A program made the translations under genes and the position numbers. The notes under the pieces are model-generated. The model was not told where the DNA came from, made no database searches, and was given only the letters and a program-made list of their open reading frames with translations. Positions 1-32,034 of a stretch of 32,034 nucleotides of DNA are shown here, piece after piece. Position 1 is the first letter of the stretch, and each line of letters opens with the position of its first letter. Origin of the DNA: Elusimicrobiota bacterium (GTDB taxonomy: Bacteria > Elusimicrobiota > Elusimicrobia > UBA1565 > UBA9628); the NCBI GenBank assembly GCA_027319565.1, contig DAHVNA010000024.1:1-32034 (forward strand), read 5' to 3'.

Positions 1-107
1 CAGCCCTTTAAGATTTTCTTGTCCGGCGGGACCAAAGAAAAACCACCTATAAACGATTCTAGGGCCATTCCGTGCCAGCCCTTTAAGATTTTCTTGTCCG
101 GCGGGAC
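1..107 (-). CRISPR. Type V-B CRISPR array, leader-proximal end; truncated by window edge (one full repeat, one spacer, one partial repeat)
   Basis: 1-32 is identical to 76-107. The full repeat is taken as 72-107 (36 nt), minus strand GTCCCGCCGGACAAGAAAATCTTAAAGGGCTGGCAC; the 3' TGGCAC end is typical of Cas12b repeats. The spacer is 33-71 (39 nt if that boundary is right). Adjacent to cas2, cas4-cas1 and cas12b. Confidence 0.92.
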
Positions 108-244
108 TGCACTCTCTCAGAACAGCCTGATCTCGAGGAAAGAAACGCCAGAAAACCAGCGTTTTCGAGCGCCCCAATCATTTCCCATACGCCATCTCAC
201 AATTTTCAAGCCAGCGGAGCCTCCACACTCTATAAAATCCCCTC
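108..244 (-). promoter_or_regulatory. Putative CRISPR leader
   Basis: Non-coding stretch between the predicted tracrRNA 3' hairpin and the first repeat. Positional inference only. Confidence 0.5.
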
Positions 245-385
245 GAGCGGCTTATCGGCGCAAGCCGCACTCCGTCCCGCTCGAAATGTCAAAGATCAAG
301 AAAATATCAAAAGACTCCCCAATTTTGATGGCTTTGTGGGCCTCGTGGCACTAATTGAGGTTAAACTGTAGCCTGTAGCTACGAG
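245..385 (-). ncRNA. Cas12b tracrRNA (ends approximate)
   Basis: Minus-strand GUGCC (347-351) pairs with repeat 3' GGCAC. The anti-repeat at 297-316 pairs 19/20 (three G-U) with repeat nt 12-31. GCGGGAC (274-280) pairs with repeat nt 1-7. Internal stems: 368-372/378-382, 317-324/353-360, 330-332/340-342. 3' hairpin: 247-253/262-268. Lies between cas2 and the array, as in characterised V-B loci. Confidence 0.82.
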
Positions 386-390
386 TCATT

Positions 391-678
391 TTAATAAATT
401 AATAATTTCCTGTCTACAATCTCAATTGGACGTCCCATGCTTTCAACAATTCCAGAAACATCCTCTGCTGAGCGAAGACGGATTAATAAGACTTGATCAT
501 CATCCTTTGATATTGCGTCGCGCATTCGGCCCTCTAACATAGCTTTATCGCGATCTCCTAGCTCACATAAAAAAACCGAGTATTGAAGAGCGTCTCCATA
601 ATCACGAGCAATACGGTACACACGCCGCCAACGCGCCGGGTCCGAAATATCGTAAGAGAGAATAAAGTATGATCTCAT
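391..678 (-). CDS. cas2: CRISPR-associated endoribonuclease Cas2
   Basis: 95 aa; SYDISD and LQYSVF motifs; 4-nt overlap with cas4-cas1. Confidence 0.96.
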   Translation of the reverse strand: MRSYFILSYDISDPARWRRVYRIARDYGDALQYSVFLCELGDRDKAMLEGRMRDAISKDDDQVLLIRLRSAEDVSGIVESMGRPIEIVDRKLLIY

Positions 679-2435
679 CGTGTTCGGAGCGGCTTATAAT
701 CCTGAACATCCCCTTCCAAAAAACGCCCCAAAAGACGGCATTCAACATCCAGAACTCTCCGATAGCTAATTCGATACCCAAATACGGGATGAGTAATCAA
801 TTCATCCATTCTTCTCTCATAACCAGCAATAAAACACGCCCTGCCTTCCTTACTCATCTGAACCTCGGTCGCAGTCATCAGAAAATGCGAAGGCTTCATT
901 TCACCCGTGTTGATGAGTCTCAGAACCATCGAGTCAACAACGAGAGGACGGAAAGGCTCCATCATGTCGAGCGCGAGGGCTGGCCTGCCAGCCTCCATCG
1001 AATGGTAAAAACCGAAATAGGGATCCAGTCCCACACCGATTAACGCGGCGACAAAATCACGAGCTAGCAACGTATAACCAAAGGAGAGCATGGCATTGAC
1101 CGGATCTTTAGGCGGTCGCTTGGTTCGCCCAATCATATTGAAGAAAGATGAGCTTTCGCTTGACCACCCTTGGCTTTCCGGCAAGTCATCAAAAGTCCGC
1201 TGCCCTGCCGAAGATTCCGCTTTGCGCCCAATCAACTCTGGGAAGGTCTCAAAGTAAACCTGCCCAGCCTTCCCTTCGTAGCCACGCAAACTCGGGATAT
1301 CCTTCGCGAGAATACAATTGTCAGCGGCTGTTTTTAATTGTTCCAGCGAGCCTTCCATCTTTTTTAAATTACGTCTTAGAAAAGTACGTTGATTCTCAAT
1401 TTTTGCCTGAACTATATCCTTCGATAAACGCAAGCAGGACTCCTCCACATTGAAATATCTAAACTGCGACACCCGAAGCGCGACATTTTTAGCGATGGGG
1501 GCCGTAGCGGTCCCCAGAAGTTTTCCTCCCGCCGAGAAGAAACTAACCGTGCGTTGTGCGGCAAGGAACAAATGCAATGCTTCCGTGCTGATCTGAACGT
1601 GTCCAAAAAGAGCGGCGTGCGCGATATCTTTAAAAGGAATTTCATCTACGACTTCATTGTTGGCGGAAACAACCACGCTTTCTCCCCTTTTTGAAATATG
1701 AGCGCCCTGGGTAACCACATAGAGAACGCCTGCGTCGTCTCGCCCGGGAATGATTCTCCGCGGCTCCCCAATCTTGCCTGCAAGCCTATTGGTTTCATCC
1801 GGAAGGCAAAAAACGTTGAGCGAACAACGGATGCACTTGGGGGAGTCTAGCAAAGGCGGTGGAATCGCTTGAGTAGAAGCTTTAGCCGCTCTGGCAATGA
1901 CATCCAAGACGGCGTTTACCAAATCAGGCGTAAACTCAATACGGACTTTCTTCTTTGACGCGCGGTAATAGATAAACCCATACTCTGATCGGTAACCGTT
2001 TTCGCGTAAAAGCAGGCCTTGGGCGCAAACCTGAACTTGGTCGTTCGGCCACGCATCGGACGAAAGAGACCAGTTCCCCAACTTGAATTCGGCATTGCCA
2101 GCGGGACCAGCCGAATGCTTGTATTCAAGCGCGGCCCAGTGGCCAGCTTCCTCTTCAATGGCGTCGAGCTTGCCGGTAATTCCAAGCTTGTCGCCAGTCA
2201 ATGAGAGGTTTTTGGTAAAGAAATTCTGTTGAGTTTCCTCTTCCTCTAATGTATCGGTCTTACCTTTTCCCTTACGCCGGACTTTTGATCGACTGGAGTC
2301 AACGCGTTTATGCTGGTATGAGCCCTGGACCGTATCGGCGCTTTCGCGAAAAAGGCCTTGTACATGCTCTAAATGGAATAGACGCGGGCAATAGACGTAT
2401 TCGTTGAGCATTCGCAACGGAATAAGCGAAGACAT
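675..2435 (-). CDS. cas1: Cas4-Cas1 fusion
   Basis: N-terminal Cas4: YCPR plus CIRCSLNVFC Fe-S cysteines, GKLD..EYK and QVCAQ motifs. C-terminal Cas1: GYEG, DPVNAMLSFGY, GFYH, LALDMMEPFRP. The fusion is typical of type V-B. Confidence 0.96.
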   Translation of the reverse strand: MSSLIPLRMLNEYVYCPRLFHLEHVQGLFRESADTVQGSYQHKRVDSSRSKVRRKGKGKTDTLEEEETQQNFFTKNLSLTGDKLGITGKLDAIEEEAGHWAALEYKHSAGPAGNAEFKLGNWSLSSDAWPNDQVQVCAQGLLLRENGYRSEYGFIYYRASKKKVRIEFTPDLVNAVLDVIARAAKASTQAIPPPLLDSPKCIRCSLNVFCLPDETNRLAGKIGEPRRIIPGRDDAGVLYVVTQGAHISKRGESVVVSANNEVVDEIPFKDIAHAALFGHVQISTEALHLFLAAQRTVSFFSAGGKLLGTATAPIAKNVALRVSQFRYFNVEESCLRLSKDIVQAKIENQRTFLRRNLKKMEGSLEQLKTAADNCILAKDIPSLRGYEGKAGQVYFETFPELIGRKAESSAGQRTFDDLPESQGWSSESSSFFNMIGRTKRPPKDPVNAMLSFGYTLLARDFVAALIGVGLDPYFGFYHSMEAGRPALALDMMEPFRPLVVDSMVLRLINTGEMKPSHFLMTATEVQMSKEGRACFIAGYERRMDELITHPVFGYRISYRRVLDVECRLLGRFLEGDVQDYKPLRTR

Positions 2436-2443
2436 TCATGAAA

Positions 2444-5400
2444 TTATACGGAGAGCGCGTTACGAATTTTTTGCTTGGTCTGTCCCCAAAATACTTTAGA
2501 CTCATACCAACGACTTTCAGTCAGCATCAATCCTGATGGATCCCTAAAATAAATAGTTCTCTTTCCGATTGCCGCTTCATCTTCCTCATGCATATGCCCG
2601 AGGTCTTCCATGGAATCTAAACCATCATGCTGATTAACCTTCCCTGTCGCACCTCTCTTCGATCCGGAAATAATCTGACAAATTCCTGTAGTTCCAGGCT
2701 TGATGGATTGAAGCAATTTCCCATTAAAATAGATTTTATTGCGCGGCCCTATAATCGGAACGAACAAGTCTTTGTGTTCCCCAGCTACGCAAACCACTCG
2801 GAAATATTCTTCGTAATTCATCCAAAAACGACGCTGAAGGTTTTGCGCCGCATTAATATCAGCATGAACTAGGATTGGCTTGCCAGTTTCATCCAGCGTG
2901 CAAAAAATTTCCCCGCCATCCCAAGGGATCACAGAGCCTATTTTAATCTGCGCTGTATTTAACTCTGAGTCTTCGATCTTTTTTTTAAACCACGGCTTGT
3001 CCACAACATCCTTGGTCACACTCAGACAACGAAATCCTGGAGAGCCAAACCTCGCATGAAAACGGGAAGTAAATCCAGCGCCTACCTTACCAACGAGGAT
3101 TCCAAATAGGCCAGCTTGACGAGCAGTTTCCTCAAACAAAGCTCGATGCGCCCATTGCATCAGCATTCCGTTTTCGTGGCGAGGACGGTCGGTGCGGAAG
3201 CGATAACGAGCGAGATCCTCAAAAAGAATAATGCCGCAAGAGTCGTGCAGTTTATTCTCAGCGCCCTTGCCAGCAGAAAAACCTAAGGCCGCCATCACGA
3301 TAGCATCAGCGGATTTCTTAATGCGATCTTCTTTAAGTGCATCAATATGCGTTTGAAGTCTCGCGGCGAATTTCTTATTTTCCGGCAAGCGATTTATTTC
3401 CTTGGATTTGCGTGGGTGATTGGTCCAGCGGATCAGAATTTTGCGAACCTTCTCAAGATAATCAATTCCTTCCAAAGAAAGCCCCCAAACCCCGAATTGC
3501 TGGCTTCTGCCATTTGCCAACCGCATCTCACCTTTCCGCCATTCGCGAAGGGCTTTGGAAAATTGTCCTTCCCAAGTCTTATGAATTTTTTCGATTTTAT
3601 AACACCAAGATTTTAAGTCGAGAGACATTGCCTCTTTCAGTTCCATTAAGTCCTTCTGTTCATAAATCCCGATTTCGTCTTGTGTTAATTCATCCAGCTC
3701 TTTTTTCCGTTGTTCGCCTTCTAGGCTAGAAAGACGGATCAAAGCGTTCATACTACGAAGACTGTTTGATAAGGCGCGCAACTTCTCCCAAAGCGCATTT
3801 CGTAAGGCTTTGACACGTGGATCGGGCCGTTCTCCAGGCAACGGCAGGAGGAAACTCCGTTCATGTTCCATAACTTTTTTAACGCCAGAAATAGGAATGG
3901 TAAACTTCCCCTGCTCAGCTTTGGGTTTCATTCGAAAAACGGAGCAAGCAGCCATCTGTCTAACGCCTAAATCCACTGACAAACAGCCCAAATCATTGAT
4001 TTTTTCAATCTCTTCAGGTTCTTTGAGACCCACTAAGAACTGCGATCCATTTATTCCTCGCGGCGTCTTTTTAAATCCTTTACTTGGTATTGCCTTACGC
4101 TCCTCCAGATCAAGAGTCAAATTAACATAGACAGGCCCACCTCCAAGAAGGATAAGATTCTTCTCATTTGTCTTCTCTAGTACGTCGCGATTTAGCCTAA
4201 TACTTGCGCCTCCCCACTTTCCATTAAATTTTTCTCCGGTGCCCTGATCGGTCAAAATGACGTCGCGGGGAGAGTCCTTAGCTGCGCTAATGTATTTCAA
4301 TTGCCCGGAAACGGCCACTGGCAAAGTCTCTCTCTTCTCAACCAGTTTTTTCCCTTCAGGAAAAAGGAGGGACAGTTCTAAAGTCCAACCACCCTTCCCG
4401 TCTGGCAGGATAGAGTAATCATTCAGATTGGTCCCATTAGGCACATCCAAACGGGGCCATAGAGGATGCTCACAGGGGTGCGGCAAAGTCATGATAGTCC
4501 AAGGATTAGACTCTTCGGAATCAATGAGAAGCGAGTTGTATTTGACCTGAAACAGGGTGAAATCCGTATCATCTCGCCAAACGCTCCAATTCTCTTCCCG
4601 CGACAAATACTCAACAAAGTGCATGTCGCCGACTTCGCGAGGATTGGCTTCCTGCCACTCTCGGGCGATATTCAATAAATCGGCGGCGCGCGACCTAGGA
4701 TTTTTTTTAACGGCGGCCAACCATTTCTCTCTTATTCTGTCCCATCCACGCAACATACGCCTACCAATACGAAACCGTCGCTTTAATCCGAGCGAACCCT
4801 GTTCTAGATCAGTCTTTCTATTTTTTTCGTACTGATCAAAGATGGGATTCCATTTCGAGAAATCTGTTTTATGCTCCGAACACCATGCATCAAGTTCGTC
4901 CTCCGCTTTTTTTTGACGAGCCTTGGCATTCTGATTCCAGCTCTCCCAAGAAGAAATCCTTTCCAGGGCCTGCTGGAACATATCCCTCTCCCAGTTCGTC
5001 AATTGATCATCCTTCCAGTCTCTGATTTTTTCCCCCTTCTCTACGCCAGCCCAAATCCAACCTGATTGGAGTCGAAACATCGGCCAAAGTGGAAGAAGTC
5101 CAAGGTCTTTGAGCTTTGGGCGCAACTCCACTGATTTTGCTTCTGTCTTTTTAAATTCATATTTGAGCTTTGCTTCTTTTTTGCGCGGGTCGCTATCTGG
5201 AAGTTTCATCCAAGTAGGTTTGCGTCCGCTTGCGCTCTTGCCCAAGCCCGACTCGCTTTCTTTGCTGACAAAAGAGCCTAGCCAATCGCGGGCAATACTT
5301 TGGTTATCGCCTTTTTCCCCGATAGAAGCAGGAACCACTTGCTTATAAACTTTCCCCAGAAGCTCCAAAATCTCCTCATCCGTGCCCTTGTTTGGAATCC

Positions 5401-5647
5401 CATTTCGCTTTTGAGCTGAGCGCGCGATTTCTATCAATTCCTTTTGGAACTCATCCGCCCGTCTGGTGGGCTCTCCAGATTCATTGTCTTCATATACATC
5501 TTCCTGGCGCAAACGAAGAAGCTGTTCCACAAAATACCGGACACCGTCATTATGAATGAGATGCGTCGTTCCAACGGCCCGTCTTATGGCATCTCCCGAT
5601 TGAGATCTTGGAATTACCAACTTTATCTGAATTGATTTAACACTCAT
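2444..5647 (-). CDS. cas12b: Type V-B effector Cas12b (C2c1), 1067 aa
   Basis: N-terminus VKSIQIKL; WERDMFQQALERISSWESWN; HPLWPR; RuvC-I SVDLGVR; RuvC-II ILFEDLARY..ENGMLMQWAHR; RuvC-III HADINAAQNLQRRFW; context cas4-cas1, cas2, tracrRNA, array. Confidence 0.96.
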   Translation of the reverse strand: MSVKSIQIKLVIPRSQSGDAIRRAVGTTHLIHNDGVRYFVEQLLRLRQEDVYEDNESGEPTRRADEFQKELIEIARSAQKRNGIPNKGTDEEILELLGKVYKQVVPASIGEKGDNQSIARDWLGSFVSKESESGLGKSASGRKPTWMKLPDSDPRKKEAKLKYEFKKTEAKSVELRPKLKDLGLLPLWPMFRLQSGWIWAGVEKGEKIRDWKDDQLTNWERDMFQQALERISSWESWNQNAKARQKKAEDELDAWCSEHKTDFSKWNPIFDQYEKNRKTDLEQGSLGLKRRFRIGRRMLRGWDRIREKWLAAVKKNPRSRAADLLNIAREWQEANPREVGDMHFVEYLSREENWSVWRDDTDFTLFQVKYNSLLIDSEESNPWTIMTLPHPCEHPLWPRLDVPNGTNLNDYSILPDGKGGWTLELSLLFPEGKKLVEKRETLPVAVSGQLKYISAAKDSPRDVILTDQGTGEKFNGKWGGASIRLNRDVLEKTNEKNLILLGGGPVYVNLTLDLEERKAIPSKGFKKTPRGINGSQFLVGLKEPEEIEKINDLGCLSVDLGVRQMAACSVFRMKPKAEQGKFTIPISGVKKVMEHERSFLLPLPGERPDPRVKALRNALWEKLRALSNSLRSMNALIRLSSLEGEQRKKELDELTQDEIGIYEQKDLMELKEAMSLDLKSWCYKIEKIHKTWEGQFSKALREWRKGEMRLANGRSQQFGVWGLSLEGIDYLEKVRKILIRWTNHPRKSKEINRLPENKKFAARLQTHIDALKEDRIKKSADAIVMAALGFSAGKGAENKLHDSCGIILFEDLARYRFRTDRPRHENGMLMQWAHRALFEETARQAGLFGILVGKVGAGFTSRFHARFGSPGFRCLSVTKDVVDKPWFKKKIEDSELNTAQIKIGSVIPWDGGEIFCTLDETGKPILVHADINAAQNLQRRFWMNYEEYFRVVCVAGEHKDLFVPIIGPRNKIYFNGKLLQSIKPGTTGICQIISGSKRGATGKVNQHDGLDSMEDLGHMHEEDEAAIGKRTIYFRDPSGLMLTESRWYESKVFWGQTKQKIRNALSV

Positions 5648-5656
5648 TTGTCATAT

Positions 5657-5785
5657 TCACTGTAGCATTGCCTTCGCCGCAGAATAGGTCGGCGCGACAT
5701 ACGACACAGGATTTGGCATCGTGTCCGGCCTGGCCCACAACGCCATCGGACCCGAAATCTCAAGTTGCACTTTATGCGAATCCAT
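5657..5785 (-). pseudogene. cas5: Truncated Cas5 (type I-C-like N-terminal 42 aa)
   Basis: Hand translation MDSHKVQLEISGPMALWARPDTMPNPVSYVAPTYSAAKAMLQ* matches the Cas5 N-terminal signature (LE.SG..A...RP......SY..PT.SAA..ML). The stop lies 9 nt before the cas12b ATG. Confidence 0.8.
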
Positions 5786-5796
5786 AGCTGATTGCT

Positions 5797-5853
5797 TTAC
5801 ACGATCTTACATTTTCGTCCAGCAATCTCAAAAGCGCACTCGTAGTTTTTCAT
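5797..5853 (-). pseudogene. Possible second Cas5 N-terminal stub (18 aa)
   Basis: MKNYECAFEIAGRKCKIV*; the first 12 residues align with MDSHKVQLEISG of the adjacent cas5 fragment. Too short to be certain. Confidence 0.35.
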
Positions 5854-5909
5854 CGAAGATTCCGTTTATGAATTAATTCTATCCTTTTCAAAATGCTCCA
5901 CGCTCGTCT

Positions 5910-5938
5910 ATTGTAGCAACCCTCTCGCCCCTTATGAA
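5910..5938 (-). promoter_or_regulatory. Candidate sigma70 promoter for the cas operon
   Basis: Minus strand TTCATA (5933-5938), 17 nt, TACAAT (5910-5915), with an extended TG motif. Confidence 0.45.
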
Positions 5939-5961
5939 GCGAGAACAAAACGGCTCCGCGG
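5926..5961. repeat. Imperfect direct repeat, copy 1 (hairpin-forming)
   Basis: 28/36 identical to 7431-7466 (22/26 in the core CGCCCCTTATGAAGCGAGAACAAAAC). Confidence 0.7.
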
Positions 5962-5962
5962 C

Positions 5963-6009
5963 TTCGACGGAATTCGACGGAATTCGACGGAATTCGACGG
6001 AATTCGACG
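5963..6009. repeat. Perfect tandem repeat (TTCGACGGAA) x4.7
   Basis: Directly visible; begins 5 nt after the stop codon of the AlbA_2 gene on the minus strand. Confidence 0.95.
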
Positions 6010-6014
6010 ACGCA

Positions 6015-7424
6015 TTACTCCCCCCTCTTTAAATGCCAGCGCGCGCCCCGAGCGTAGCCCCGGCAGATTACGAGTTTAAGGCGGCGCAAATGATTCAACT
6101 CATCACGGAGAGCTCTCTCCGTCGCGGCTGATTGAATGGCGGAAAGTATCTCCCCTAAGCGAAGAGGCCCCGCCGAAGCCAAGACATCAAGGACTTTCCT
6201 TTGTCTTTCCGTCAATTCATGGCCGATCTTCGTTGGAGGAAGGTAGCGAGTCGCCCGAAAGCAAACGACGACGCCTCCCGCCAGATCCGCGATCTCGGGC
6301 CGAGGCAGGCCGGCCCTCTCGGCCATTTCCGCCATTTTGATGGTTCCGCGACCCCAAGCCTCGATGAGGCCTCTCTTATAAAAAACGGAAGCGATGATTG
6401 GATTCCAAGGCAGGGATTCATGCGGCTCATAAAGATCGGAAATTTTAAGCCCAAAATGCAGGGAGCCGGAAGAGCTGATTTCCAAGCGGTCATCGTAAAT
6501 GGCGATGCCGACCGAACCGCCGCCGATGGAATAGTCCCTATGGCAAAAAGCGTTGGCCAGGGCCTCGCGAAGAGCCAATGGAGGATAAAGCGGGTCATCC
6601 TCGCGCTCAAAAAGATTGGGAACGACACGGCCGGCCACTGGAAGATGATCTCTCAAAAAGCGTTCGGCTCGAACAAGCAAATCAAAGACGTTGCCGTAAT
6701 AGCGGCGATTGTCGATAAACTCGGTCTTGTCTCGTCCTTTAAAGCGCGCGAGCTTAAGCAGGCATTGGGAATAATCGCCCTGGAGGCGGTCGGGACGCGC
6801 GAAAAGAATGACGGCGGCTCTCAGAAGTTTCTCCCCTTTCAGCAAGGCCAGCCCGCGTAAAAGGTCCGCCGGAACGCGCGTTCCGGGATCCTCACAACGG
6901 CCGCGCCGAACCGCTTCATCCATCGTCCTCCTAATTTCGTCTTCATCCAAATCATTGACGGTCCAGCCCTCGGCAAATTGGTTTTCCCAACGCGAAACGG
7001 AATGAAGCTCCTCCAACAGCATCCGGTTATAATCCTCGCGGGACATCTCCGCGTTGGTCGCGCCAACTCGATGGTAAGCCTTTCCTTGAAATGAATACGG
7101 ACGCCTGGAACCGCGCTCAAATGAAACAACGATCGCTTCACGACTTGAGCCAATCCGGATGCGCTCAATGGCGGGGAAAACGGGCGGCTCAATCATCCGC
7201 AGATAGACGGCGACATCATCGAGGGTTTTGTCGCTCGCTTCCTGGCCAACGACGCGCCCTTGCGGATCGACGCCGAAGATAACGCGCCCGCCTTTATGGT
7301 TGAGCATGGCGCAAACGGCCCTGGCGGCCTGGCCGCGCTGGCCCGTGGTGGACTTAAACTCCTGGACTTCAGATTCGCCTTGCGCCGCCCAGTCTGAAAG
7401 CCGATCTTCCGCCGTTTTCGTCAA
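6015..7424 (-). CDS. Schlafen/AlbA_2 domain + RecG-C-like ATP-binding domain (HATPase_c_4) + winged-HTH protein
   Basis: GESEVQEFK, AMLNHKGGRVIFGV (AlbA_2); LREALANAFCHRDY, IYDDRLEISSSG, NPIIA, IEAWGRG; C-terminal LTERQRKVL..HTH. TTG start. Confidence 0.88.
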   Translation of the reverse strand: MTKTAEDRLSDWAAQGESEVQEFKSTTGQRGQAARAVCAMLNHKGGRVIFGVDPQGRVVGQEASDKTLDDVAVYLRMIEPPVFPAIERIRIGSSREAIVVSFERGSRRPYSFQGKAYHRVGATNAEMSREDYNRMLLEELHSVSRWENQFAEGWTVNDLDEDEIRRTMDEAVRRGRCEDPGTRVPADLLRGLALLKGEKLLRAAVILFARPDRLQGDYSQCLLKLARFKGRDKTEFIDNRRYYGNVFDLLVRAERFLRDHLPVAGRVVPNLFEREDDPLYPPLALREALANAFCHRDYSIGGGSVGIAIYDDRLEISSSGSLHFGLKISDLYEPHESLPWNPIIASVFYKRGLIEAWGRGTIKMAEMAERAGLPRPEIADLAGGVVVCFRATRYLPPTKIGHELTERQRKVLDVLASAGPLRLGEILSAIQSAATERALRDELNHLRRLKLVICRGYARGARWHLKRGE

Positions 7425-7430
7425 TGTCCC

Positions 7431-7466
7431 CGCCCCTCATGAAGCAAAGACAAAACCGCCATGCGG
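7431..7466. repeat. Imperfect direct repeat, copy 2; overlaps the RBS of the AlbA_2 gene
   Basis: 28/36 identical to 5926-5961. Minus-strand 7425-7452 forms a 12-bp stem with a 4-nt loop ending at the TTG start. Confidence 0.7.
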
Positions 7467-7545
7467 ACAAAAATGTCGTTTTTAACTTGGTCCAAAATGA
7501 AGGAACGCAATCCGGCGAGATCAAAAGCGCATTCGCTCATTTATC

Positions 7546-8022
7546 CTACTCCGTTCGGGGGGCCCACAGGCCGGATAAAAGGCCCTCAAAGACGTCTTCC
7601 CCATCTTGGGGGCCGCCATCAAACTGCATCTGAACCTCGCTGAGAAGCTTGTTAGACCGGAAATAACCCTCTTCGCCAAAGGAGGCAAAACACGCGATCT
7701 TATCGCCTGGGAAAACTAATTTCTTGCACTCCGCCCGGCGAATCTCGGCGAAAAAACCGACCATCCGGCTTAGTTCCTCTTCGGAAACGCTACGGCTCAT
7801 ATAATAAATGCACCAGGCGACGTTCCCGATCTGGGCCGCCATTTCAATGAGTTTGGCGTGCGGAATAATCCAGCGCCCTAAAGACTCGACGGCGTCTTCT
7901 TCTTTCCAGGTATAGACGCCCAGGATATGATCTTCATCTAACTCCAATATATCGTCGACAAAGCGCATGGGGCGCTGTTGGGGAATTAAGGACAAAATTT
8001 TTTCTTTACTCCAGCCGCTCAC
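7546..8022 (-). CDS. FabZ/FabA-like hotdog-fold dehydratase (degenerate active site)
   Basis: LIPQQRPMRFVD, LIEMAAQ and VFPGD motifs; the catalytic HF is absent. Confidence 0.75.
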   Translation of the reverse strand: MSGWSKEKILSLIPQQRPMRFVDDILELDEDHILGVYTWKEEDAVESLGRWIIPHAKLIEMAAQIGNVAWCIYYMSRSVSEEELSRMVGFFAEIRRAECKKLVFPGDKIACFASFGEEGYFRSNKLLSEVQMQFDGGPQDGEDVFEGLLSGLWAPRTE

Positions 8023-8025
8023 TTC

Positions 8026-9216
8026 TCACTCTCTCCTTTTTAGGTTGCCTCCAACCGACATTGGAGTTTTCAACGGATAATCCGCATAGCGAATACGCAA
8101 ATGGCATCCCACCTGGGCATTGATACAGCTTAAAATTAAACGGCCGTCCGCGAAAACGCGCGCATCTCCCTTGACAAACACGTCTGTCGTTCCCGCGGGA
8201 CGAATCAGTTTATTAATTTTTACATCATAGATTATTTGACGGTCTTTCGGGAGGACTTGATCGAAAATCTCGACTTTCTCAAGCCCCAAGGCTCGCCCAA
8301 CGCCGGCGGCGCCGCTCCAGGTCAGAAAAAGCCCGAAGATCTGCCACACCGAGTCAATCAACAAAGCCGTCGGCTTAATTCCGCCGTTCATTGGGTAAAA
8401 CCATTCCAGGTCGCTGTTGTTTCGACAAGCCAAAACCTCGCCCGTCCCGGCAAAGCGGTCAAAAGACAAGCGCGGAACCGAATCAATCCCCAACATGAGA
8501 GCGGAAGGAAGAAGCCCCATCTCAACCGGCGGATTTTCCACCAGATTCCCCTGGGACAAAGCGATGATTTCCTCGCGCGATAAATGATCCTTGGACAAAA
8601 ATTCCTGATAACTGAACCGCTTTTCAAACGGGGCGCGGGATCTCTCGGAAACGACCGGGGATGGGTTTTCCGCGCTTTTCTCCCAAAAAGCGGATCCAAT
8701 CTGCGCCGATCCAATGGAATAAATCGGGGCGTCTCCAAGAAAAACGGAAGCGGAAGCGCTCATTAAAAAATCGCTTCCCTCTTTTTCAATTGATCGAATA
8801 TCCACTACATAGACGATTTTTGAGTCATAAGGACGTATCTGACCGGAAAAGACGACTTCGGAAAATTCCAAGTCCTTATCGCAGCCGGAAAGGCCCCTCC
8901 AAGCGGCGAAAAATTTCATGGATTGCCAAACCGCGTCCAAGCCCCAACAGCCCGGCATCACCGGGTCGCCGACAAAATGGCAGGAGTAAAACCAATCGTC
9001 TACTTGGTTTCGCCGAACGGAGACAATTCGGCCCGTTTGGGAAGTCTCATCCCAGGAAATGGACTCAATTTCGTGAAAGGGCAAAAGAAGAAAGTCCGAT
9101 ATTTTGGGAAGGCCCTTGGGAGCGTCTTCCAGCAACTCCCCGCGAGCATATAATTTAATCTCGGAAAAGCTAAAACTTGAGCGAGCTTGAAACTCATTAA
9201 ATTTCATCAGAGTCAA
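8026..9216 (-). CDS. fabA: Tandem two-domain FabA-like 3-hydroxyacyl-ACP dehydratase/isomerase
   Basis: Domain 1 has WFYSCHFVGDPVMPGCWGLDAVWQ (FabA signature) and FSGQIRP. Domain 2 repeats the fold (LIDSVWQIFGLFLTWSG..GRALG). The start may be ATG at 9207. Confidence 0.78.
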   Translation of the reverse strand: MTLMKFNEFQARSSFSFSEIKLYARGELLEDAPKGLPKISDFLLLPFHEIESISWDETSQTGRIVSVRRNQVDDWFYSCHFVGDPVMPGCWGLDAVWQSMKFFAAWRGLSGCDKDLEFSEVVFSGQIRPYDSKIVYVVDIRSIEKEGSDFLMSASASVFLGDAPIYSIGSAQIGSAFWEKSAENPSPVVSERSRAPFEKRFSYQEFLSKDHLSREEIIALSQGNLVENPPVEMGLLPSALMLGIDSVPRLSFDRFAGTGEVLACRNNSDLEWFYPMNGGIKPTALLIDSVWQIFGLFLTWSGAAGVGRALGLEKVEIFDQVLPKDRQIIYDVKINKLIRPAGTTDVFVKGDARVFADGRLILSCINAQVGCHLRIRYADYPLKTPMSVGGNLKRRE

Positions 9217-9280: not shown

Positions 9281-10228
9281 CTAATTCGCGCTGTCGCCGG
9301 GAAGAAGATTCTGGGGGACATCCTTAAATGAAACCGGTTTTCCATTCTCGAAGTTAAGAATCCACGCGCGGTCAAAGACGTCTCCTTTCCATGAGTCCGG
9401 GCCCGAGTCCCAGCCTAAATAATGGACGAGATTAACGATATCATGGTGTTCCCAACAAATCAAGATCATCTTGCCGGCATAGCTGGCGTTCGAGAGAATC
9501 GCCTGAACCATCGCAAGACCGTCTTTTTTCGCGTAATCTTCGATAATTTGAAGCCCCAAACTTTGGGCCAGAGGGGTCACCGTCTCTATCGGGCGAAAAC
9601 TGCCGTCATCGGAACTGGGCTTCATCGCGTAAATCGCGGCGGGCGGACCGTATTGGGTGACTTCCGGATTGCTTTTAAAAAACCCCACCAGGGCCTGGGC
9701 CCGGGCGCGGCCGCGATCGTTGAGATGGTTTCCCACCGGCGGCTTTTCCCCATGGCGAATGATGATGACCTGGCCCGGTCCGGGATACACGCTTGAAGGC
9801 AGTAGAAATCGAGAGGACAAGGCCGCGGCGATCGCGGAAGCTTTTTTGAGAACCGAACGACCGGACAGCGCCAACGCCTCCGGCGCGGAAATGTTTTGAG
9901 GCCGAGAAATCTCCGGTTGAGAAACAGTAAAATCCCTAGGCGAGAGATTTGAAGTCTTGGTCTCTAAATGAGAAAGACCTACCGCCGAGGGCGTAACCTT
10001 TAAAGCTTTTTGGCTTTCCGGGAGAACCCTCCCCCTGTCTTGCGAGAGAGAGTCCCCATTGAGCGCGGTTGAGTCCCCCAAAGGCAATGAGTCCAGACCC
10101 GCCGCTATTTCCGGAGCGCTGATGATTGGTGCGGGAGCGTCCGCGCCCTTATATTCGGAATATTGGGCGCAGTAAAGGCGCGGGATAAGTCCCCCCAAAA
10201 GCGCCAGCGCCAAGAGATTTCTTTTCAT
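9281..10228 (-). CDS. Signal-peptide histidine phosphatase superfamily protein
   Basis: Leader MKRNLLALALLGG; Ser/Pro/Ala-rich linker; IIIRHGEKP, RPIETV and CWEH motifs. Confidence 0.85.
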   Translation of the reverse strand: MKRNLLALALLGGLIPRLYCAQYSEYKGADAPAPIISAPEIAAGLDSLPLGDSTALNGDSLSQDRGRVLPESQKALKVTPSAVGLSHLETKTSNLSPRDFTVSQPEISRPQNISAPEALALSGRSVLKKASAIAAALSSRFLLPSSVYPGPGQVIIIRHGEKPPVGNHLNDRGRARAQALVGFFKSNPEVTQYGPPAAIYAMKPSSDDGSFRPIETVTPLAQSLGLQIIEDYAKKDGLAMVQAILSNASYAGKMILICWEHHDIVNLVHYLGWDSGPDSWKGDVFDRAWILNFENGKPVSFKDVPQNLLPGDSAN

Positions 10229-10230
10229 TT

Positions 10231-11994
10231 TTAATTCCGCTTAAACCAGCCCCCTTTTTTGGCGTTTAAGGCGTCCAGATCTTCTTGAATCCGCGGATTG
10301 TCCTTGGCCAATTTTTTGAGCGTGCGGTAATTTAAAATCCAAAACGGAAGAGCTAATCCCCACAAAAGCAGCGTCGCGACCGGAATCCCATGGGTGTAGC
10401 GCAGTAAAAAAGGGTCGAGAAAAAGACCGGGAAATTTGACGATAAAGCGCGCGATGGCCAAGGTTTCCCGGGTCATCGTCACTCCCTTGACGGTAGAAGC
10501 CGCAATCGCGGATGAATGAAAAATTTTTCCGATCAAGCCGCGCAGCGGAACCTTCATTCTGACCGGAAAAAACCACGGTTTCATGAAATATTTTTGGTGA
10601 ATTTTAGGAATGACGTTCATCACCGTAGACAAATAGCGATCTCCAAAACCAACCAGCCAAACCATGATATTGGTCTGCCAGGTAAAAATGACGTGCCAAT
10701 TGCCATGCGCCTGCATGACGGCCAAGGGATAAAATAAAAGAGCGCTGACCATCATGCGCTTGGTCGATTCCCAACTGCGATTATCCCCTCTTTGAACAAA
10801 GGCGGCGTAACTGTCGCTAAAAACCGCCAGCATCAGCGCGAAAATTCCCGAGGCGATGGCCGGGCCCCAGGTAAAAGCGTTGACGTTCGGGTTAAAATGA
10901 GCGGCCAAGGCCGCCATCCCGTAAGCCAAGCCGAACTGAATTGAGGCCGAAAGCGTCCCGCGGAAAACATCTCCGTAGTGAACCGGCTCAAGAGTGCCTT
11001 TAATCCAATGCTTCCACCAGCGAAAACTGCGGCGCACGAAAGACGGGTTTGTTTTTTTATCCCCCAGCGCCGGAGAAAAAAAGGCCTTGTCATTGGCGGC
11101 GTCAATCATCAAGACCGCGCGGTAAGGCTCGCCAAAAGAGCCTTTCAAAAGGCCCAGGGGGTGCACCTTCCGGTTAATCAAAAGCCGCGAACGATAGGTG
11201 TCCAAGCGTTTTGAAGCTAGAGGTTCATCCAGAAAATTCCCGGTTTTTTTGCCCGATCTCTCAAATTGGATGGGAGGCAGGCCCGCGTTGGCCGATAAAG
11301 CGGGATTGGCGATGACCGCAATCAAGGGACGGCGCCCCTTGACGGCAAAACGAAGCGCCACCTGCCCTTCAATTAATTTGGCCTCGATTTCCCCCACTCC
11401 CGGCTTTGAGACATGAAAGCGGCTCTGCTCCACGTCGCGGATAAACAAAGCCCGGTCGGACTGGTATTCCGGAGAGTTGAATTTTGAGTCGAGCTCCTGG
11501 ACAAATTGGGAATAGAGATCGAAGAAATCGGATTCCCGCAAAAGGGTCTCGGGGGAATGCTCTTTAAGGGCGGAAGAAATTGAAGAATAAATTTGAGAGA
11601 CCGAGCGGATTTTTAAAGCCGCCGGGGCCAAGGCGGCGCTAGTTTGAGGCAAAGCGGTTTCTTGCTTGGAAACAACTGGACTAAAAGACGGAGAGGCAGA
11701 TTCAAGACTTACTTTTTTTTGTGCCGGAGGGGTCAACGACTTAATCGGCGGTAAATCCGCGATGGATGGGGAAATTGCGGCAGGTAAATCATTCGGATTA
11801 GGCGAAGAGTCGACGGCAGGAAAATCGCTAGGCAAGGCGCCGACAAGATTTAAATGAGGAAGGCTTTCGGGAAGAGATTCCCGAAAGCCTTCGGCGCAAA
11901 GAGGCGAGACGGCAACGGATAAAGCCTGGGCCAAGCCCAAGAAAACCGCAAGGGCCTTTGAGGCTTGTGTCCGAGACGGTCTACAAGGTTTCAA
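10231..11994 (-). CDS. Hypothetical exported/membrane protein
   Basis: 587 aa; signal-like N-terminus ending SPLCA; Pro/Ser-rich linker; several hydrophobic segments in the C-terminal half; no family recognised. Confidence 0.75.
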   Translation of the reverse strand: MKPCRPSRTQASKALAVFLGLAQALSVAVSPLCAEGFRESLPESLPHLNLVGALPSDFPAVDSSPNPNDLPAAISPSIADLPPIKSLTPPAQKKVSLESASPSFSPVVSKQETALPQTSAALAPAALKIRSVSQIYSSISSALKEHSPETLLRESDFFDLYSQFVQELDSKFNSPEYQSDRALFIRDVEQSRFHVSKPGVGEIEAKLIEGQVALRFAVKGRRPLIAVIANPALSANAGLPPIQFERSGKKTGNFLDEPLASKRLDTYRSRLLINRKVHPLGLLKGSFGEPYRAVLMIDAANDKAFFSPALGDKKTNPSFVRRSFRWWKHWIKGTLEPVHYGDVFRGTLSASIQFGLAYGMAALAAHFNPNVNAFTWGPAIASGIFALMLAVFSDSYAAFVQRGDNRSWESTKRMMVSALLFYPLAVMQAHGNWHVIFTWQTNIMVWLVGFGDRYLSTVMNVIPKIHQKYFMKPWFFPVRMKVPLRGLIGKIFHSSAIAASTVKGVTMTRETLAIARFIVKFPGLFLDPFLLRYTHGIPVATLLLWGLALPFWILNYRTLKKLAKDNPRIQEDLDALNAKKGGWFKRN

Positions 11995-30022: not shown

Positions 30023-32034
30023 TCAGAGAGGCAAGCGCGAAATGGAAGGCAAATCAATCCCGTGGGCCTTGGCCGCCGCGCGGATAGGCTCTTCGTAGAG
30101 AATATTTCCATCTCGGTCCATGGCATTGAGAAGAACGTGGGTTACCGCCGCGGGGATATCAGGCATATATCCAAAAAGAACCGGAATAATTAATTCCGCC
30201 GCTATTTTTGCGCCTTCCTCCTTTCCCAAGCCTGCAATTAAAGATTTTCTTAAATCCCACGCAAATCCCATCCACGCCAGCCCTTGCTGGTGAATTTCGT
30301 CTTGAGAGTTGAATTGATAATCATTTTCCCCGTTTCTAATCCAATCCGGGCTTTGTTTTTTCAAAAATCCCTCTCCGATTAAGGGCGTATCGAGCATAAA
30401 CATGGACACAATATCGCCCCAGCCCTCGCCCAGCCCCTCATTGGGCATGATTCCGGCGGGGTGATCTAAAACCGGGAGCTTGTAATGATAGGAAAAATAG
30501 GCCCGCGCGCGCTTAAGCATATTCATAAAAAAACCGGCGGGCGGATTGTGAATCATGTCATCGGCCTTATGGGTCATTTCATGGAACAAAATTCCTATCT
30601 TTCCGGTGTCGGAATATTCCTCGCTTGCGCGATCGGAATGAATATCCCCGCTTTCGGAGCTGTACCAGGCGTTTCCAGATTCAGGAGAATTGACCCGAAT
30701 GGTCGTGCGATAATCCAGGCGATGATCGGAGTTTAAAATGCCGCGCAGCCACGCGCGATGCCGGGAATCGGCCACATAGGCGTTGACCTGGTTGACCATC
30801 AAAGGATCTGTCCCCTCCGGCTCAAAAACCACGACATTATCCAAACCTTGGTGAATGCGCGCCGAAACTTCAATGGGCTCCCCATTTTCATTGACCACTT
30901 CGGTAAAAAGGCCGGACAATTTCGCCTTAACGGTCGCTTCGCTATCCCGGATATCGGCGGAGAAACGCCCGTTTTCATCGCTGGTATATTCCCGCCCGTC
31001 GATCGTCAGATGAAGATAGGGGATAGGCTGCGGAGATAAAACCATTTTCCCCTCCGGCCGCCGGTCGTCTGATTCCGCCCGGGCCAAAACCTGGCCTTCG
31101 GCCTTCCGCGCCGACATCAAACCCAGGGGAGACATCTGATTTCCGCCCTTGGGCGCCGCTAGGGGGCGCAAGCGATCGGCAATATCCGGCGGCAGCCCCA
31201 GAGAATTGGAACTTCCGTCATTATCCCAGATAAAAATATCTCCGCTAAATAAATCGGCCGCGATGGTCACGGGAAGGCCCTTTTTTCGGTAGAGATTCAC
31301 CGCGCGCCAACGCCCATGGCGCTCAATGACCGTTCTTCCCAAAAAGCGAATCAAGGTCTCGGGAGAATCCGCAAAACGCGCGCGAACCGCCTCGTTTAAA
31401 TCCTGGTCTCTTAAAATAGGTTTTTGGGGCAACTCAATTCCCGAATAGATGTTTGAATGAAGCGAAACCAAGAAAGGGCGGCCTTTGACCACCTTAATTG
31501 TCGCCGCGACATAGGATCCCCAGATAGGCAAGGAAATTAAAGAGCCGCCCGGAGTCTTTACATCTTTTTTTTGGCGAAAATAAGCGTAGAGAGTGTCCGC
31601 CCGGTTGGAAGAGCCGGGATGGGCGGTCACATAAACCGTGGATAAATCCAGACTGGAAACTCCCAAGCGGGATTTTTGAAGATCTATTTTTTCCCGCAAC
31701 ACCTTTTCAACCGCGAATTCATCCTTGGGATTAATATGGAGTTCGATGGGGTTCTTGAGAAATCCGTCCGCATCTTCCCCGTCCCATAAATTTCGGTGGA
31801 CCACGCTCTGCGGTAAAGAATCAGCCTCCAAATCCATCGCTTCAGAAAGCGCTGGAGGCAAGTCTAAGGGTTTAGGCAAACTGAGGGGCAAAAGACTCCC
31901 GGAATATTTAAAGCCGCCCCAAAAGCGGTTAAAGATAGAGTTTTGTTTTTTAATTTTTGAAATTTTAGAAAAGAAAATTTTTAAAGCGCGCTTTCGGCCC
32001 AAAGAAGAGGAAATCCCTTGGGGAATTTTCTCGC
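30023..32034 (-). CDS. M36/M4-like zinc metallopeptidase, 5' end outside the window
   Basis: GNAWY, HEMTH, GLGEGWGD and EIH motifs; the frame stays open from 32002 to the window edge. Confidence 0.82.
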   Translation of the reverse strand, partial: EKIPQGISSSLGRKRALKIFFSKISKIKKQNSIFNRFWGGFKYSGSLLPLSLPKPLDLPPALSEAMDLEADSLPQSVVHRNLWDGEDADGFLKNPIELHINPKDEFAVEKVLREKIDLQKSRLGVSSLDLSTVYVTAHPGSSNRADTLYAYFRQKKDVKTPGGSLISLPIWGSYVAATIKVVKGRPFLVSLHSNIYSGIELPQKPILRDQDLNEAVRARFADSPETLIRFLGRTVIERHGRWRAVNLYRKKGLPVTIAADLFSGDIFIWDNDGSSNSLGLPPDIADRLRPLAAPKGGNQMSPLGLMSARKAEGQVLARAESDDRRPEGKMVLSPQPIPYLHLTIDGREYTSDENGRFSADIRDSEATVKAKLSGLFTEVVNENGEPIEVSARIHQGLDNVVVFEPEGTDPLMVNQVNAYVADSRHRAWLRGILNSDHRLDYRTTIRVNSPESGNAWYSSESGDIHSDRASEEYSDTGKIGILFHEMTHKADDMIHNPPAGFFMNMLKRARAYFSYHYKLPVLDHPAGIMPNEGLGEGWGDIVSMFMLDTPLIGEGFLKKQSPDWIRNGENDYQFNSQDEIHQQGLAWMGFAWDLRKSLIAGLGKEEGAKIAAELIIPVLFGYMPDIPAAVTHVLLNAMDRDGNILYEEPIRAAAKAHGIDLPSISRLPL

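Follow-up and report, generated by a model that had tools for sequence, protein, structure and literature searches.

The 42-codon open reading frame (ORF) directly upstream of cas12b in the window, the whole 32,034-nt stretch of DNA analyzed here, is the truncated start of a cas5 gene and very probably a scar of system replacement, in which the cas5 heading a divergent type I-C operon was cut off after about 38 codons and a complete type V-B CRISPR-Cas system was joined on behind the old promoter, following at least one earlier replacement. Since the whole V-B system appears to have arrived, and not its effector alone, the locus is not a functional hybrid, and the stub is a relic and not a partner of Cas12b. 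The coordinates of the features are collected in Table 1 (G000 is the genome holding the window; G001 to G005 are relatives).

Table 1. Features of the locus, numbered by position in the window.
Feature	Position	Strand	Description
CRISPR array start	1..107	-	one whole 36-nt repeat (72-107) and a second, truncated where the contig ends
tracrRNA candidate	290..365	-	conserved block and anti-repeat
cas2	391..678	-	profile matches
cas4/cas1 fusion (Cas4g/Cas1g)	675..2435	-	NF049935, 678.7 bits (cut-off 560)
cas12b	2444..5647	-	1067 aa, intact; NF033949, 611.6 bits; Pfam C2c1 domains
42-codon ORF (cas5 stub)	5657..5785	-	codons 1-38 from a cas5 of a divergent type I-C lineage, then 4 junction codons; ATG start, TGA stop
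Second, older stub	5797..5853	-	18-codon ORF; first 12 codons cas5-start-like
Sigma-70-like promoter candidate (extended -10)	5910..5938	-	consensus match only: 2 found against 0.5 expected
10-nt tandem repeat	5963..6012	.	behind the AlbA_2/RecG-C gene; similar repeats in the order, not CRISPR-specific
AlbA_2 and HATPase_c_4 gene	6015..7424	-	passenger at the variable site; G005 has it as well, G001, G003 and G004 lack it there
fabA-like genes	7546..9216	-	conserved left flank of the variable site; Pfam FabA match in the 396-aa gene only

The initial annotation had described a 42-aa ORF, missed by the gene track, with a Cas5 signature and an end 9 nt ahead of the start codon of cas12b. Both its coordinates (with the cas12b ATG at 5647) and its homology were confirmed. 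The peptide passed the cut-off of the Cas5 profile TIGR02593 (E 6.2e-6; 25.9 bits against 17.8) and remained slightly below that of PF09704 (E 1.3e-4; 22.5 bits against 23), and it matched a 217-aa Cas5 (P0111) with 81% identity across all 42 aa (E 6e-14; 51 matches in total). The homology, at both the DNA and the protein level, stopped near K38 and covered 38 of about 217 residues, and the final four codons and the 9-nt gap had no clear cas5 match. A frameshifted continuation of cas5 was found neither within cas12b nor elsewhere in the genome, and an extension of the homology past the Cas12b start in tblastn was judged to be chance, because Cas12b homologs have the same start without cas5. 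A functional type I-C Cas5 is a full-length RRM protein of about 200–240 aa with a catalytic region, and the stub offers 38 homologous residues followed by a stop. The RNase triad of Bacillus halodurans Cas5d (Y46/K116/H117 in the accessible text of PMC3973291) falls past the end of the stub, by the B. halodurans numbering alone. The residues that are left are near-consensus, and both the open frame and the start codon are retained. This is what an element under selection would show, and a recent origin fits equally well, because the identity of G000 to G005 rises from about 91% in the flank to 98% immediately upstream of the stub.

A search of G000 for Cas5 (111 contigs, 92% complete, with the window on contig C28) returned the 42-aa stub as its sole match; at this completeness, a cas5 elsewhere in the genome may have been missed. 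A type I-C hybrid would hold cas7, cas8c and cas3 as well, and separate searches of the same genome for two of these, cas7 and cas3, gave no Csd2-type cas7 and no cas3 above the cut-off.

Downstream of the stub, the type V-B module was complete. The Cas12b carries the RuvC-type acidic residues D559, E810 and D930, the cas4/1 fusion and cas2 follow, and the array lies beside cas2. V-B systems need a tracrRNA. A block at about 330–354 was nearly invariant across G000, G003 and G056, opens with 6 nt complementary to the 3′ end of the repeat, and probably belongs to this RNA. The predicted duplex between the candidate and the repeat reached −27.4 kcal/mol, a value with no shuffle control, and the candidate’s own predicted fold was not unusually stable (z 0.17). 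The repeats of G000 and G003 differed at a few positions, and the tracrRNA-candidate block was conserved. The 36-nt repeats were present on contigs C28 and C47 with three unique spacers, none of which matched elsewhere in G000. The array resumes on C47, which runs on into tetR, and the two contigs would join across the array, judging from the shared repeats and the synteny. The initial annotation had proposed that cas12b displaced an effector module by recombination inside cas5. What came in was instead the whole V-B system, given that the Cas4g/Cas1g fusion is of the V-B type and 93.5% identical to that of a cas5-free sister locus, and no I-C gene beyond the stubs therefore seems to remain.

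The site between the fabA-like gene and tetR differed in its contents within a single genus: V-B in G000, II-C in G003, an I-C relic in G005 and nothing in G001 and G004 (G002, 71% complete, was left out of the comparison). In G005, positions 5817-9209 of the window were shared at 94% identity, and then followed a 36-codon cas3 start (46 bits) and a single 37-nt repeat resembling the repeats of the I-C array in G345. In G003, the site was occupied by cas9-cas1-cas2-array. This was a complete type II-C system (L104:600-6435) with a Cas9 of 1073 aa and at least 18 repeats, and it coexists in G003 with the V-B module. None of the five relatives was found with an intact I-C operon at the site; the predecessor was accordingly inferred from fragments. 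In L101:5893-5929 (G005) and L128:5050-5130, a deletion joins a cas gene to a CRISPR repeat, and the junction coincides in both loci with the start of the repeat or lies among its initial bases.

Furthermore, a second and shorter cas5 start, which the initial annotation had not mentioned, was found upstream of the 42-codon stub. The 18-codon ORF that holds it stops 11 nt before the 42-aa stub. When all 39,959 Met-start 12-mers of the genome were scored against 21 Cas5 N-termini, this 12-codon start and that of the 42-aa stub were jointly the best, and 9/12 residues were identical to the start of P0171. It is common to G000 and G005 (5853-5817), up to the breakpoint at 5817. Runs X8 and X9, which have the G005-type junction at 5817, were left uncounted, as they are apparently one data set and maybe the source of G005. 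The promoter-like box and the leader that follows it were recognizable in G000, in G005 and ahead of the cas9 locus of G003. Farther upstream, 10-nt tandem repeats similar to that of the window recur within the order: several genomes have them after AlbA_2/RecG-C-like genes (L182-L185, L187), in some cases followed by a gene that we take to be restriction-modification-like. Three long ORFs without a Pfam match (315, 587 and 659 aa) lie in 9281-11994 and 30023-32032, and the first two of them are conserved across the genus.

The Cas5 lineage of the stub was located at 24 genome loci, mostly in Verrucomicrobiota, 12 with an intact gene and 12 with broken copies only; no relative of this Cas5 was found in viral contigs. 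The intact operons were arranged as cas5-cas8-cas7-cas3-cas4-cas1(-cas2), and a complete operon of the lineage with an array was present in G345, a genome of the same class as G000. The operon behind the stub is thus not of the canonical cas3-cas5-cas8c order assumed initially but of a divergent I-C lineage with cas5 first and cas3 after cas7. The lack of a cas3 upstream of the stub is explained by the first position of cas5 in the donor lineage. Directly upstream of 11/13 intact operons (the 12 and that of G345; cas operons only), a 5′ stub of cas3, of canonical cas5c or of another cas5 was detected, nine by HMM and two by motif alone, with none at L106 and L117. Stubs consisting of the 5′ end only and similar in size to the 42-codon one were observed at L124, L127 and L129.

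Several of these loci showed further regularities. In L125:400-5340 and L121:2424-8310, seven or more co-oriented fragments of cas3, cas5c and variant cas5, with ORF6N, DUF2442 and unknown genes interleaved as passengers, precede a type I-C operon that is itself intact, in an arrangement resembling a record of serial replacement. The variant cas5 was repeatedly broken at the same C-terminal motif (L107, L108, L110, L112, L120, L121, L123, L125 and L129), with the stop of the broken copies usually 7 nt before the next start, and the cas3 stubs often ended at the HD motif (L109-L111, L114, L115 and G345). Such recurrence may come either from common ancestry or from repeated use of these motifs as homology anchors.

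Taken together, we propose that a divergent I-C operon (cas5-cas8-cas7-cas3-cas4-cas1-cas2), or a fragment of it, once stood behind the promoter at the fabA-like/tetR site, and that a complete V-B system (cas12b, cas4/1, cas2, tracrRNA candidate and array) was later joined about 38 codons into its cas5. The V-B system would then probably be driven by the promoter of the old operon, and the 12-codon cas5 start upstream would be the record of an earlier replacement of the same kind. Spacer acquisition and interference would proceed by the ordinary V-B route without Cas5. In this scheme the sequence of events, transcription from the old promoter and the route of recombination are inferred; a direct replacement and a decay of the I-C operon followed by a later insertion cannot be told apart.

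The initial annotation had left two branches open, a scar of recombination or a Cas12b whose relatives carry a full-length Cas5 partner. The truncated stub, the lack of cas7 and cas3 matches in the genome and the lack of cas5 at other cas12b loci spoke for the scar, and the second branch was left unsupported. That Cas5 or the peptide acts together with Cas12b in a functional V-B variant, for instance to process pre-crRNA, is very improbable. At the locus, it has in its favor only the adjacency of the two genes and their common strand, and the type I-C Cas5d is a crRNA-processing nuclease according to the accessible text of PMC3973291; the peptide ends before the catalytic positions known from that text. 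None of 26 other cas12b loci contained pieces of I-C cas5 or cas3 up to 1.5 kb upstream when scanned with four home-made I-C profiles (all with a match reaching the cas12b N-terminus; 24 distinct; three with <600 nt upstream), in a scan that gave 67 bits for the window itself. NCBIfam detected no Cas5 among 102 short same-strand upstream frames of the 24 distinct loci, and further metagenome cas12b loci, with partial or distant matches, had no match to the variant-Cas5 profile, the only one used there. The nearest homolog, in G003 of the same genus, belongs to the same V-B module (89.5% nucleotide identity over window positions 5-5646), and the homology ends at the cas12b start codon. In G003, the module lies at a different chromosomal site, empty in G000, and the gene upstream of cas12b, inspected as the initial annotation had suggested, encodes a 2-oxoacid dehydrogenase subunit and not a Cas5. 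The conserved tracrRNA candidate would provide the usual V-B route, and the best 150 Cas5 representatives included no Cas5-Cas12 fusion, none being >321 aa. Additionally, a 5′ stub of a type I-C cas1 was observed directly upstream of a distant 1364-aa cas12b in G125 (C18:13842-14039; L208), preceded by a gene presumably of the four-helix-bundle type; this is an independent parallel of V-B next to I-C debris.

Two other readings concern the junction itself. As cas12b continues the reading frame of the stub and the two stops in between are both TGA, a read-through or a reassignment of TGA could fuse the Cas5 piece to Cas12b, an extremely improbable case considering that TGA acts as a stop in G000: it closes 5 of the 16 other genes inspected in the window and, across the genome, 367 long frames. 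Moreover, two TGA codons stand within three positions, and four of four close Cas12b homologs begin at the same Met. An assembly chimera that joined foreign cas5 DNA to cas12b might be suspected in a metagenome-assembled genome of 111 contigs, with the closest Cas5 relatives mostly in Verrucomicrobiota. It is highly unlikely, because the junction between the stub and cas12b was recovered in another study too, on a contig (X5, study P2, depth 3.3) that matches 5508-5846 with 3 differences and thus speaks against a misassembly, and an intact operon of the same lineage exists in G345, within the same class.

A further reading, compatible with the scar, gives the stub a job in cis: ribosomes from the old operon head would traverse the 18- and 42-codon ORFs and re-initiate at cas12b, and the shared stubs may serve as homology anchors for the next swap. 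We regard this as possible but doubtful. The initial annotation had argued for such coupling from the lack of an obvious Shine-Dalgarno (SD) sequence before cas12b. The GGAG core is indeed missing (−0.5 kcal/mol with a 9-nt anti-SD), but a weak site exists, as the 13-nt anti-SD tail allows a 4-bp GUGA pairing of −3.9, typical for this genome (median −3.3 over 570 long ORFs) and like that of the G003 cas12b (−4.2), so that the argument is weak. The anti-SD used is the canonical sequence; the 16S 3′ end was not found in the G000 assembly. Moreover, the cas12b start is unstructured, the start of the 42-aa stub has an SD weaker still (−2.0), and cas4/1 and cas2 have none. In favor of coupling, the elements follow one another as 18 codons, 11 nt, 42 codons, 9 nt and cas12b, and the G000 gene lacks the strong SD (−7.3 to −10.7) that precedes cas12b in three more remote relatives. 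Stops of the stubs also tend to be close to the next start: between −8 and +15 nt at 26/29 hand-picked junctions, compared with 18/39 non-fusing alternative frames (Fisher p 2.5e-4), or 15/17 against 10/24 (p 0.0035) after collapsing two shared-descent classes. Nevertheless, these junctions were chosen by hand, the distance range was set post hoc and the loci are related, and 24 more stubs remained unscored (next start unclear, contig end or motif only), some of which fit and many of which are unscorable. The anchor idea has in its favor that cas3 breaks repeatedly at its HD motif and cas5 at a single C-terminal motif. A native leader like that of G003 was also considered for the 25 nt preceding the cas12b ATG, and the similarity was not significant (1722/2000 shuffles scored as well).

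Beyond the scar itself, it is a rather unlikely idea that the operon head is a reusable socket, whose retained promoter and stub chain feed ribosomes to the plugged-in system and offer homology, so that I-C, II-C and V-B are exchanged like cassettes. If so, the earlier immune systems of a site could be read off in order from its stack of stubs, and the present locus would document a change from class 1 to class 2. If the stubs are kept for expression or as recombination anchors, a route of CRISPR replacement becomes testable. The interest of the locus is evolutionary, with V-B, II-C, an I-C relic or nothing at one site in one genus and unannotated micro-ORFs recording earlier occupants. Such stubs can also mislead annotation into false calls of hybrid systems.

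As a system, the locus is an ordinary V-B, and a Cas12b-Cas5 partnership is without support. The window has the same genes in the same order as the type V-B of Alicyclobacillus acidoterrestris (cas12b, cas4/1 fusion, cas2 and array), and the available text of PMC9419969 gives cas4/1 and cas2 as the V-B adaptation module. Unlike that system, the window has two cas5 5′ stubs before cas12b. Its Cas12b belongs to a compact clade (P0001-P0007; 1067–1089 aa, 47–88% identical internally) that is only about 30–34% identical to most other Cas12b. The family of the stub aligns with the type I-C Cas5c/Cas5d structures 8g9t_N (E 5.6e-15), 3vzi_A and 4f3m_A, and a full-length member of it matched TIGR01876 at 1e-11, below the cut-off. 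Compared with type I-C Cas5c/Cas5d, this family is divergent, with cas5 first and cas3 after cas7, and the window keeps its first 38 residues only. A full-text search, which covered few subscription papers, returned no paper that pairs Cas12b with Cas5 or describes stacks of truncated cas gene starts, and the available text of Makarova et al. (2025; PMC12669027) has no mention of such stubs stacked behind a promoter-like box that several sites share. Swaps of adaptation and effector modules within CRISPR-cas loci are recognized and estimated in that text; in comparison with this module exchange, here a whole system appears to have been swapped across classes at one chromosomal site.
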